A DNA stretch of 64,000 nucleotides, taken from IMG/VR virus record IMGVR_UViG_3300045988_179622; one strand, 5' to 3'. Under the pieces are notes generated by a model. The model had not been told where the DNA came from, searched no databases, and saw nothing but the letters and a program-made list of their open reading frames with translations. The first letter of the stretch is position 1. The number at the start of each line of letters is the position of its first letter. This stretch comes from a virus. The position numbers were made by a program, and so were the translations under genes. Shown here in pieces: positions 10,388-11,281 of this stretch.

Positions 10388-11281
10388 CTATTTATTACTA
10401 AGACAATTATATTTTAAGTATTCATCAACTAATATCTGCCCACAAGAACCACCTATGTCCCTTGCTGGTGGAACATAGTATTCTGTTTTAATTCCTTTAG
10501 CTGTTAAATTCTGCATAATTAATTTTACTTTTTCGATTGGTGTTTCTGTAGAATTGATTGTATCTTTAGTATTGTACCTAATAAACTTTATACAGATATT
10601 ATCTCGTCCCTTAAAAAACTTGATTAAATTCTTAATATCTTCTGTTCTATCATTTACTCCATTTATTAATGTGTAATGTATTTCCACAGCATTATTCGTT
10701 ACTTGCTTATAATAATCTAATAGTTCCAAAGACTTATTTATTGTTTCAACTTTAGGCATCCATTTGTGCCTATCTATATCATTTGTATAGTGTAACGATA
10801 AATGCACCTTTACATTTAATTCATTTGCCTTAACACAATCAGCAAAACTTTTTAATAAAAATTCAGAATTTCGGGGCATTGAAGTAGCAATAGCAAATCT
10901 AATATTTCCCTTGTGCAAATCATTTAGCTTACACATACTTGTTTGCAAATTATATCTATTTAATAGTGGTTCTCCACACCCCATAAACGATAGCAAGAGC
11001 ATTTTATTTCTTGATAGGGTTAAATCATTAAAAATAAACTCTACCATTTGAATTGTTTCTTTATATGTTATCTGCCTATATATCACTCTTGTAGCTATAT
11101 CTGTTATGTGACAAAATTTACAACCCATATTACACGATGTTTCTGTTGGCAAACAAATTATATTTTTACCGTCATTTTTATCTATAAAAGTAGCTTCTAC
11201 AGCTAAATTATCACTCTCAGTAAAGAAAATATACTTGATACTGTTGTCTAACTTCGATTTAATTTTTTTATGTAACCTCAA
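10388..11281 (-). CDS. RlmN/Cfr-family radical SAM RNA methyltransferase (N-terminally short)
   Basis: CNMGCKFCHI radical-SAM cluster motif with CKFC as in RlmN; SFMGCGEPLLN (MGMGEPLLN in RlmN); C-terminal SCGQI (the ACGQL mechanistic Cys). Confidence 0.7.
   Translation of the reverse strand: MRLHKKIKSKLDNSIKYIFFTESDNLAVEATFIDKNDGKNIICLPTETSCNMGCKFCHITDIATRVIYRQITYKETIQMVEFIFNDLTLSRNKMLLLSFMGCGEPLLNRYNLQTSMCKLNDLHKGNIRFAIATSMPRNSEFLLKSFADCVKANELNVKVHLSLHYTNDIDRHKWMPKVETINKSLELLDYYKQVTNNAVEIHYTLINGVNDRTEDIKNLIKFFKGRDNICIKFIRYNTKDTINSTETPIEKVKLIMQNLTAKGIKTEYYVPPARDIGGSCGQILVDEYLKYNCLSNK

Follow-up and report, generated by a model that had tools for sequence, protein, structure and literature searches.

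A 64,000-nucleotide stretch of viral DNA (IMG/VR record IMGVR_UViG_3300045988_179622, called the window here over its whole length) carries on its minus strand, at positions 10388 to 11281, a gene for a 297-residue radical S-adenosylmethionine (SAM) protein. The initial annotation had read this gene as an RlmN/Cfr-family rRNA or tRNA methyltransferase and possibly a mobile resistance determinant. Based on the open reading frame (ORF), profile matches, and AlphaFold and Foldseek comparisons, its product is a short-form class A radical-SAM methylase of the RlmN/Cfr type that lacks the N-terminal domain. By sequence and structure model, it is neither RlmN nor Cfr, and it probably does not methylate A2503 of 23S rRNA or A37 of tRNA. 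The short forms with which it groups are, as judged from their sequences, a coherent, distinct, and uncharacterized subfamily in large phages, Patescibacteria, and genome-reduced gut Bacilli. They have lost the HhH2 domain, most of their RNA-contact residues have been replaced, and they are recurrently fused or adjacent to dCMP deaminases and other deoxynucleotide enzymes; this combination leads us to favor a deoxynucleotide or DNA precursor as the substrate. We infer the substrate from these features, and we hold RlmN-type C-methylation of such a precursor tentatively, at somewhat less than even confidence.

Fold, catalytic residues, and distance from RlmN and Cfr

RlmN and Cfr are standard examples of radical-SAM methylases, and Cfr also matters in the clinic as a resistance enzyme. 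The ORF, its length, and the motifs CNMGCKFCHI, SFMGCGEPLLN, and SCGQI that had suggested this superfamily were all confirmed, as was the superfamily membership itself. Pfam returned only the generic Radical_SAM family (E = 2.9e-12). Among NCBIfam models, RlmN (TIGR00048) ranked first (E = 1e-30, 107 bits), the Cfr models followed at about 80 bits, and MoaA, pyruvate formate-lyase-activating enzyme (PFL-AE), NrdG, and similar models reached E = 1e-8 or worse, with NrdG and PFL-AE at 2e-6 to 6e-6. Searched against Protein Data Bank (PDB) sequences, the single protein matched Cfr at 8e-16 and RlmN at 6e-13 to 1e-7, while a profile of the 66-sequence family alignment matched E. coli RlmN at 4.8e-33 (118 bits) and Cfr at 6e-28; no other radical-SAM family did better than 2e-6. 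The match to the phage family PHROG 27142 was full-length (E = 8e-29), with residues 5-282 aligned to positions 7-297 of its 300-position profile.

From the family alignment, AlphaFold gave a confident model (mean predicted local distance difference test, pLDDT, 94.8; predicted template-modeling score, pTM, 0.91) that shows a partial TIM-barrel radical-SAM core with a beta-sheet extension and a C-terminal loop that bears the methyl-carrier cysteine. Foldseek aligned this model to RlmN structures with template-modeling (TM) scores of 0.79-0.81 at a root-mean-square deviation (rmsd) of 2.6-3.0 Å (E = 1e-16 to 1e-18), to Cfr with a TM score of 0.65, to PFL-AE with a TM score of 0.58 at 7 Å, and to other radical-SAM folds with TM scores of at most 0.58. 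Profile and structure together place the protein with RlmN and away from PFL-activase and QueE, and thus its fold, on these computed grounds, is that of an RlmN/Cfr-type class A methylase.

The same comparisons bear on the reading of the protein as a glycyl-radical activase, for example as the missing NrdG for the NrdD encoded in the window. The gene is the sole ORF with a CX3CX2C motif in the 64 kb, apart from one spurious plus-strand ORF, so that no separate NrdG-type ORF of this kind is present across the window, and NrdD lies within 8 kb of the gene in several relatives. However, the NrdG and PFL-AE models score about 1e-6 against 1e-30 for RlmN, the structural match to PFL-AE compares poorly with the TM score of 0.80 and 2.8 Å for RlmN, and the RlmN-specific mechanistic cysteines are invariant. 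In five related loci (L025, L026, L063, L065, and L143), a separate NrdG accompanies the NrdD beside the short form. We regard the activase reading as effectively refuted, with a negligible probability, and the PFL-activase and QueE alternatives that the initial annotation had named are ruled out.

The catalytic residues of RlmN and Cfr are retained. Cys50, Cys54, and Cys57 of the CX3CX2C motif (11111-11134), the predicted ligands of the [4Fe-4S] cluster, are invariant in the family. SFMGCGEPLLN, at residues 98-108 (10958-10990), aligns with RlmN and Cfr as the SAM-binding GGE-type motif, and five of its residues (S98, M100, G101, G103, and N108) do not vary across the family alignment. Cys43, in the sequence IICLPTE (codon 11153-11155), aligns with C118 of RlmN and C105 of Cfr and is invariant in the 66-sequence alignment; Cys280, in GGSCGQ (codon 10442-10444), aligns with C355 of RlmN and C338 of Cfr. 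All of these sites are on the minus strand. RlmN C118 and Cfr C105 resolve the covalent enzyme-substrate adduct, and RlmN C355 and Cfr C338 carry the methyl group (PMC13001441). The proposal that both mechanistic cysteines are present thus stands for the pair itself, but the resolving one does not lie in MGCGEP, as had been quoted: Cys102 of that segment is non-mechanistic and lies within the SAM-binding motif equivalent to MGMGEPLLN of RlmN.

The conserved core and catalytic residues suggest that the protein most likely uses the ping-pong chemistry of RlmN and Cfr. A first SAM would methylate Cys280, and a second would be cleaved to a 5'-deoxyadenosyl radical that activates the S-methyl group. 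The resulting methylene radical would add to a nucleobase at an sp2 carbon, and resolution of the covalent adduct by Cys43 would leave a C-methyl group on the base.

One branch of the short forms departs from this pattern. Gp434 of phage 201phi2-1 (L018, 5971-6879) and its homolog in Brevundimonas phage Marchewka (L021, 4980-5912) have tyrosine at the position of the resolving cysteine and keep the methyl-carrier cysteine. Loss of the resolving cysteine in RlmN or Cfr traps a covalent enzyme-RNA adduct. Because of the tyrosine, this branch must work differently, and by its sequences it may operate unlike the branch of the window protein.

Outside the catalytic core, the protein departs from both RlmN and Cfr. 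It falls far below the RlmN cutoffs (TIGR00048, 107 against 290 bits; PRK11194, 55.9 against 633) and the Cfr cutoffs (NF000424, 82.5 against 530; TIGR04432, 79.7 against 550; PRK14453, 76.9 against 468). The N-terminal HhH2 domain (about residues 1-65), which had been described as shortened, is absent altogether: alignments start at position 65-75 of the RlmN and Cfr models, which in the native numbering of E. coli RlmN is near residue 68, and the AlphaFold model begins directly at the beta-sheet extension. In the cryo-electron microscopy structure of Cfr with rRNA, reported in a preprint, this domain is positively charged, is anchored at the divergence of helices H90, H91, and H92, and is described as crucial for rRNA binding; its contacts correspond to those that RlmN makes with tRNA, and it anchors the L-shaped RNA (PMC13001441).

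The RNA-contact positions reported for Cfr and RlmN (PMC13001441) were mapped onto a 132-sequence alignment, in which 75 short forms (39 from phages, 12 from Patescibacteria, and 24 from reduced Bacilli) were compared with 44 canonical RlmN sequences and references. Most of the contacts are replaced. Written as RlmN/Cfr residues, T116/S103 is replaced by I or V at position 41, N172/S151 by L96, N208 by K158, and T210 by H160, and R206/R184 is lost. R274/K250 gives way to S, A, or P (A198 in the window protein), T276/Y252 to E200, N307/N288 to K232, R344/R327 to Y269, and R347/F330 to P272. Ser98, the equivalent of S153 in Cfr, is kept. An independent alignment by HMMER agrees on I41, L96, S98, K232, and Y269.

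Compared with individual enzymes, RlmN (TIGR00048; PDB 3RFA and 5HR7), a dual-specificity enzyme that makes m2A2503 in 23S rRNA and m2A37 in tRNA, is the best match. It shares the core, the beta-sheet extension, the CX3CX2C and GGE-type motifs, and both mechanistic cysteines, but at about 24% identity its residues T116, N172, R206, R274, T276, N307, R344, and R347 are replaced. Cfr and Cfr(B, C, D) (PDB 9P0P) have the superfamily, the catalytic cysteines, and S153 in common with the window protein, which has no N-terminal domain, no alpha5/beta6 loop extension, and none of the residues K250, Y252, and T325. The last three residues and the loop extension are features conserved in Cfr (PMC13001441). 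In the window protein, the residues read A198, E200, and E267, and the alignment shows no insertion at the position of RYKSGKLYH, where the loop extension would be. As a side observation, the net charge and isoelectric point (pI) of the catalytic core were tried as a proxy for RNA binding and did not discriminate, with canonical RlmN cores at a pI of about 5.9 and the window protein at 8.9.

Phylogeny gave a concordant placement. In a neighbor-joining tree, the clade of the window protein falls outside the group of cellular RlmN plus Cfr (73.5% bootstrap). On one side of a split supported by 98/100 bootstrap replicates are canonical RlmN, Cfr, and the Vibrio and Stenotrophomonas phage proteins; on the other are the window clade, the 201phi2-1 clade, and the proteins of Patescibacteria and reduced Bacilli. 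The Cfr clade itself (99.5-100% bootstrap) excludes the window protein. The assignment as RlmN or Cfr, with A2503 or A37 as target, found no support in these comparisons, given scores below all cutoffs, the missing HhH2 domain, the replaced contact residues, and the position outside RlmN plus Cfr.

This also disposes of the idea of a Cfr-like m8A2503 methyltransferase that confers resistance to phenicols, lincosamides, oxazolidinones, pleuromutilins, and streptogramin A (PhLOPSA) as a mobile determinant. Distant Cfr homology, at about 80 bits, is all that speaks for it, while scores of 80-82 bits contrast with cutoffs of 530-550, the Cfr residues, loop extension, and N-terminal domain are missing, and the protein lies outside the Cfr clade. 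We consider it refuted as a family assignment and barely credible as a function.

Members and signature of the short-form subfamily

The window protein has many relatives of the same build. A large-database search returned many full-length relatives of about 295 residues, among them a metagenomic homolog (P0001) that is 96% identical, also 297 residues long, and aligned over 100% of the query. When 1.84 billion cluster representatives (50% identity) were searched with the profile, 527 clusters matched at E ≤ 1e-30. Nearly all of the best 150 of the 527 representatives begin at profile position 1-15, and thus they have no N-terminal domain. Nine residues (I41, L96, S98, K158, H160, E200, K232, Y269, and P272) form a signature that is complete in the window protein; in every short-form group the frequency of each residue is at least 94%, with valine in place of I41 in the Bacilli group.

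The phage homologs in GenBank come mostly from jumbo or otherwise large phages, including 201phi2-1, Phabio, Tunturi_5, and phages of Brevundimonas, Vibrio, and Stenotrophomonas, and their annotation is inconsistent. PHROG 27142, described as "Fe-S-cluster redox domain-containing," includes 201phi2-1 gp434, Phabio, and Tunturiibacter phage Tunturi_5 gp170, and has the same architecture of about 300 residues without the N-terminal domain. Tunturi_5 gp170 is 37.5% identical to the window protein and has the signature residues in common with it.

The nearest copies in cellular genome bins are those of Patescibacteria (40-45% identity), whose location is truly chromosomal: the gene sits between IleRS and ArgRS in one case, beside IF-2 in another, and near a CCA-adding enzyme, polynucleotide phosphorylase, and tRNAs in a third. 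The Patescibacteria copies nest among viral ones in the neighbor-joining tree. More distant copies (30-34% identity) occur in metagenome-assembled genomes of genome-reduced gut Bacilli, beside rpoB and a ribosome-associated GTPase. Matches in Clostridia (27-32% identity) carry an N-terminal extension of 55-125 residues, and the one tested scored 398 bits, above the RlmN cutoff; these are therefore canonical RlmN.

The short forms of phages and Patescibacteria receive from annotation pipelines the label "23S rRNA (adenine2503-C2)-methyltransferase" or "rRNA large subunit methyltransferase N." A literature search found nothing relevant on phage-borne RlmN/Cfr-like enzymes or on radical-SAM deoxynucleoside monophosphate (dNMP) methylases.

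Two further observations concern unusual members and neighbors of the family. P0122 (505 residues), P0144 (437 residues), and P0155 (412 residues) have C-terminal extensions of 100-200 residues that match nothing in Pfam and may be additional fusion partners. A Monoglobus "plasmid" (L013, NZ_OY725736.1) encodes at 241-1416 a 329-residue protein annotated as rlmN (WP_004607971), the N-terminal part of which is shortened and divergent. This gene follows one for a cysteine-rich KTR-domain protein and precedes a sigma-70 factor, an arrangement that resembles the cargo of a mobile element, and its product branches with canonical RlmN and Cfr, not with the short forms.

Genomic associations and candidate substrates

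Gene fusions give pointers to a substrate. Short forms are followed by a dCMP deaminase domain in the same protein in L076-78 and P0197, while in P0184 the deaminase comes first; since the domain order is reversed, P0184 represents an independent fusion event. The fused deaminase domains score 61-113 bits with ComEB and 26-28 with TadA (113 against 28 for P0184), and the P0184 domain matches the dCMP deaminases 4p9c (4e-39) and 1vq2 of T4 (7e-27) in the PDB. The candidate assignment as TadA, the tRNA A34 deaminase, which would have favored a role in tRNA modification, was rejected on the NCBIfam scores, sequence motifs, and PDB matches, which indicate dCMP deaminase. Independent fusions in both orders to an enzyme of free dCMP are classic Rosetta-stone evidence. 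In another protein, P0202, a Nuc_deoxyrib_tr domain that exceeds the gathering score of Pfam comes after the radical-SAM domain; its only PDB matches are the CMP N-glycosidases MilB and BlsM, and these are weak (E = 0.24-0.8).

Adjacent genes extend this association. A ComEB-type deaminase gene lies directly upstream of the short form in two phage loci, with a gap of 9 bp in L028 and an overlap in L045. Other neighbors are ribonucleotide reductase (RNR) at 35-80 bp (L006), dUTPase at 167 bp (L031), and ThyA at 0.8 kb (L043/L058), and further ones include ThyX, NT5C, and NrdD with its own NrdG. No such deoxynucleotide genes were found near canonical rlmN at 25 dereplicated control loci. In the subclade of the window protein (58-70% identity), the gene lies between PolIII-alpha and a RecD2-type helicase on one side and NAD-ligase, ThyX, and NrdD on the other. 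There is an analogy, limited to gene fusions and genomic company, with ThyA-family phage enzymes that modify dNMPs at C5 and with pyrimidine-nucleotide pathways of the MilA/MilB type. The shared company comprises dCMP deaminase, dUTPase, RNR, and a partner with a nucleotide N-glycosidase or deoxyribosyltransferase fold; in contrast, the ThyA, MilA, and MilB-type enzymes use folate-dependent chemistry and have neither sequence nor fold kinship with the short forms.

If a DNA precursor is methylated, the substrate would most plausibly be a pyrimidine dNMP of the kind handled by dCMP deaminase, and the enzyme would act within the nucleotide-metabolism and replication program of the phage. No neighbor family occurs in more than 6 of the 44 dereplicated loci, and therefore there is no obligate partner; in particular, no gene supplying the N-terminal domain in trans was found among these loci.

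Several points weigh against a DNA-precursor substrate. To our knowledge, all characterized enzymes of the RlmN/Cfr family act on RNA adenines, and no experimental work on any short form was found in the literature. The contact mapping and the trees, which are simple neighbor-joining trees, were built on alignments of about 25% identity. The loop at R206/R207 is ambiguous, and because HMMER and MAFFT differ there by two residues, R128 may correspond to R207 of RlmN. Even the most frequent neighbor family is present in at most 6 of the 44 dereplicated loci, and the neighborhood signal is inflated because phage nucleotide-metabolism and replication genes cluster regardless. The immediate neighbors in the window are uninformative, as they encode DUF551, hypothetical proteins, and a DNA methyltransferase, with a tRNA-Arg gene 2.3 kb away. 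Finally, genes of tRNA metabolism and translation recur: a Thg1-like gene lies near the short form in 6-9 phage loci, a tRNA array surrounds it in L006 and a tRNA cluster in L020, and the chromosomal copies of Patescibacteria sit among translation genes (IleRS, ArgRS, IF-2, CCA-adding enzyme, and tRNAs).

These last associations speak for a minimal RlmN, that is, an RNA adenine C-methyltransferase without HhH2 that acts on tRNA A37, rRNA, or other RNA, possibly on phage tRNAs. Apart from the resistance claim, this is essentially what the initial annotation proposed. We consider it less likely than a DNA-precursor substrate, but a serious competitor and the main one. tRNA genes occur near the short form in the window, L006, L020, and most Patescibacteria loci, and a CCA-adding enzyme lies nearby in the Brevundimonas phage (L021); such proximity is only suggestive of a tRNA substrate. 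The closest characterized homologs are RlmN and Cfr, the beta-sheet extension is kept, and so is Ser98, whose Cfr equivalent S153 contacts RNA phosphate and ribose. The tRNA-Gln(UUG) of the window has A37 and C38, as in an E. coli substrate of RlmN. In bacteria of the candidate phyla radiation (CPR), rlmN is reported to be only partly conserved, which might reflect a divergent form of the gene (PMC12641178). The domain crucial for RNA binding is nevertheless missing, and R206, R344, and N307, which are conserved in RlmN and Cfr and touch a universally conserved region of the RNA, are replaced. Most phage copies have no tRNA genes within 5-10 kb, and the independent fusions to dCMP deaminase and to a deoxyribosyltransferase-type domain are hard to square with an RNA enzyme.

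Some details of these tRNA-rich loci are recorded here as observations of their own. The Thg1-like genes, of the tRNA-His guanylyltransferase/3'-5' polymerase family, are 1-6 kb from the short form in L145 (14289-15134), L147 (14041-14919), L057, L059, L046, L047, and L056. L006, on a 338-kb contig (JBINOJ010001091.1), has 18 tRNA genes within 17 kb around the homolog (673-16868), among them one for a suppressor tRNA whose anticodon UUA reads UAA, and also encodes VWA and TROVE (Ro60-like) proteins, which suggests a stop-codon-recoding megaphage. In L031, an IMG/VR viral contig, a transfer-messenger RNA with its tag peptide (13762-14116) adjoins a tRNA-Met gene and lies 3 kb from the homolog.

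A further alternative, which we judge quite improbable, is that the enzyme C-methylates a base of the phage DNA after replication, as a hypermodification against restriction. The gene lies among replication genes in relatives, the window has genes for at least four DNA methyltransferases, including one 0.5 kb downstream, and the RNA-specific anchoring domain is gone. On the other hand, the chromosomal copies of Patescibacteria and reduced Bacilli look like housekeeping genes, which is at odds with a role in anti-restriction; the substrates of the fusion partners are free nucleotides or nucleosides and not DNA; and no DNA-binding domain is present.

Within the DNA-precursor reading that we favor, a more specific version would make the short forms a SAM-dependent, folate-independent C5-methylase of pyrimidine deoxynucleotides. 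Acting on dUMP, the enzyme would yield dTMP; acting on dCMP, it would yield 5-methyl-dCMP, from which dCMP deaminase would produce dTMP. This would constitute a third, radical-SAM route to thymidylate or a methylated precursor in large phages, Patescibacteria, RF39-like Bacilli, and possibly DPANN archaea. Such a route fits because the family occurs in salvage-dependent organisms. However, ThyA or ThyX is encoded 1-5 kb from the short form in three phage lineages (L001, L027, and L043/L058), and this co-occurrence weakens a simple replacement of thymidylate synthase. The sequence evidence leaves this version improbable.

The phage setting and what the subfamily may mean

The gene starts with TTG (11281-11279), with no alternative ATG start nearby on inspection of the sequence, and is preceded at a distance of 9 nt by a Shine-Dalgarno-like GTGAGGGA (11291-11298, minus strand). 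An apparent intrinsic terminator follows on the same strand (10272-10310), with the stem AGAGACTAC / GTAGTCTCT and then seven T residues. An IMG/VR viral contig (L022) carries a copy that is identical, except for the translation of the TTG start.

The window has a GC content of about 30%, with essentially all genes on the minus strand. It encodes four tRNAs, an intein-containing NrdD, RecJ, a DNA polymerase, a clamp-loader-like ATPase, TnpB, and several DNA methyltransferases. From this content and the copy on L022, the source element is a large phage, so that the proposed carriage by a mobile element is borne out; its host is probably an anaerobic, low-GC organism. At the DNA level, comparison of the region with known phages gave only tRNA-sized matches. 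The tRNA genes, all on the minus strand, are Gln(UUG) at 902-974, Arg(CCU) at 7986-8059, and two near-identical Gly(UCC) at 30349-30419 and 31539-31609. All four tRNAs carry A37, and a pyrimidine at position 38 is found in tRNA-Gln alone.

The DNA methyltransferase genes, also all on the minus strand, encode an N6_N4_Mtase protein (9053-9877), phrog_67 (23138-24079), phrog_56 (25799-26695), and an NPPY-motif protein (32472-33092), which suggests that the phage invests heavily in anti-restriction DNA methylation.

Other genes of the phage deserve mention. The NrdD protein (34294-38088, minus strand; 1264 residues) is apparently split by two inteins, a large one with a LAGLIDADG-like block ("...MGCVDGNEV...YSHNCRAF") and a mini-intein ("...TLCLDGETL...LVHNCGTQ"). 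A TnpB/OrfB_IS605 protein with a Cas12f-like TNB domain is encoded at 15965-17281 (minus strand), and a RAGATH-18 RNA motif (19993-20067; 51 bits against a gathering score of 44.9) lies 2.7 kb from it on the same strand; the related phage locus L001 also contains a Y1 transposase and TnpB. A 553-residue protein with SPFH/Band_7 and flotillin domains is encoded at 6109-7770 (minus strand). A Band_7 protein is also found about 7 kb from the radical-SAM gene in the related locus L145, and "prohibitin family protein" is the label given to the region of the homolog in two GenBank phages.

For the family, these results mean that the short forms are probably mislabeled as rRNA methyltransferases and that the label gives no grounds for assuming a resistance risk. 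They define a widespread, uncharacterized subfamily in which the rare methyl-cysteine radical chemistry appears to be kept while the substrate site has been rebuilt. The dCMP deaminase fusions turn this into a testable idea, namely that DNA precursors are C-methylated by radical-SAM chemistry. If it is true, class A radical-SAM methylation would reach beyond RNA, and phages and ultra-small bacteria could prove to have a new pathway for nucleotide modification or thymidylate synthesis.

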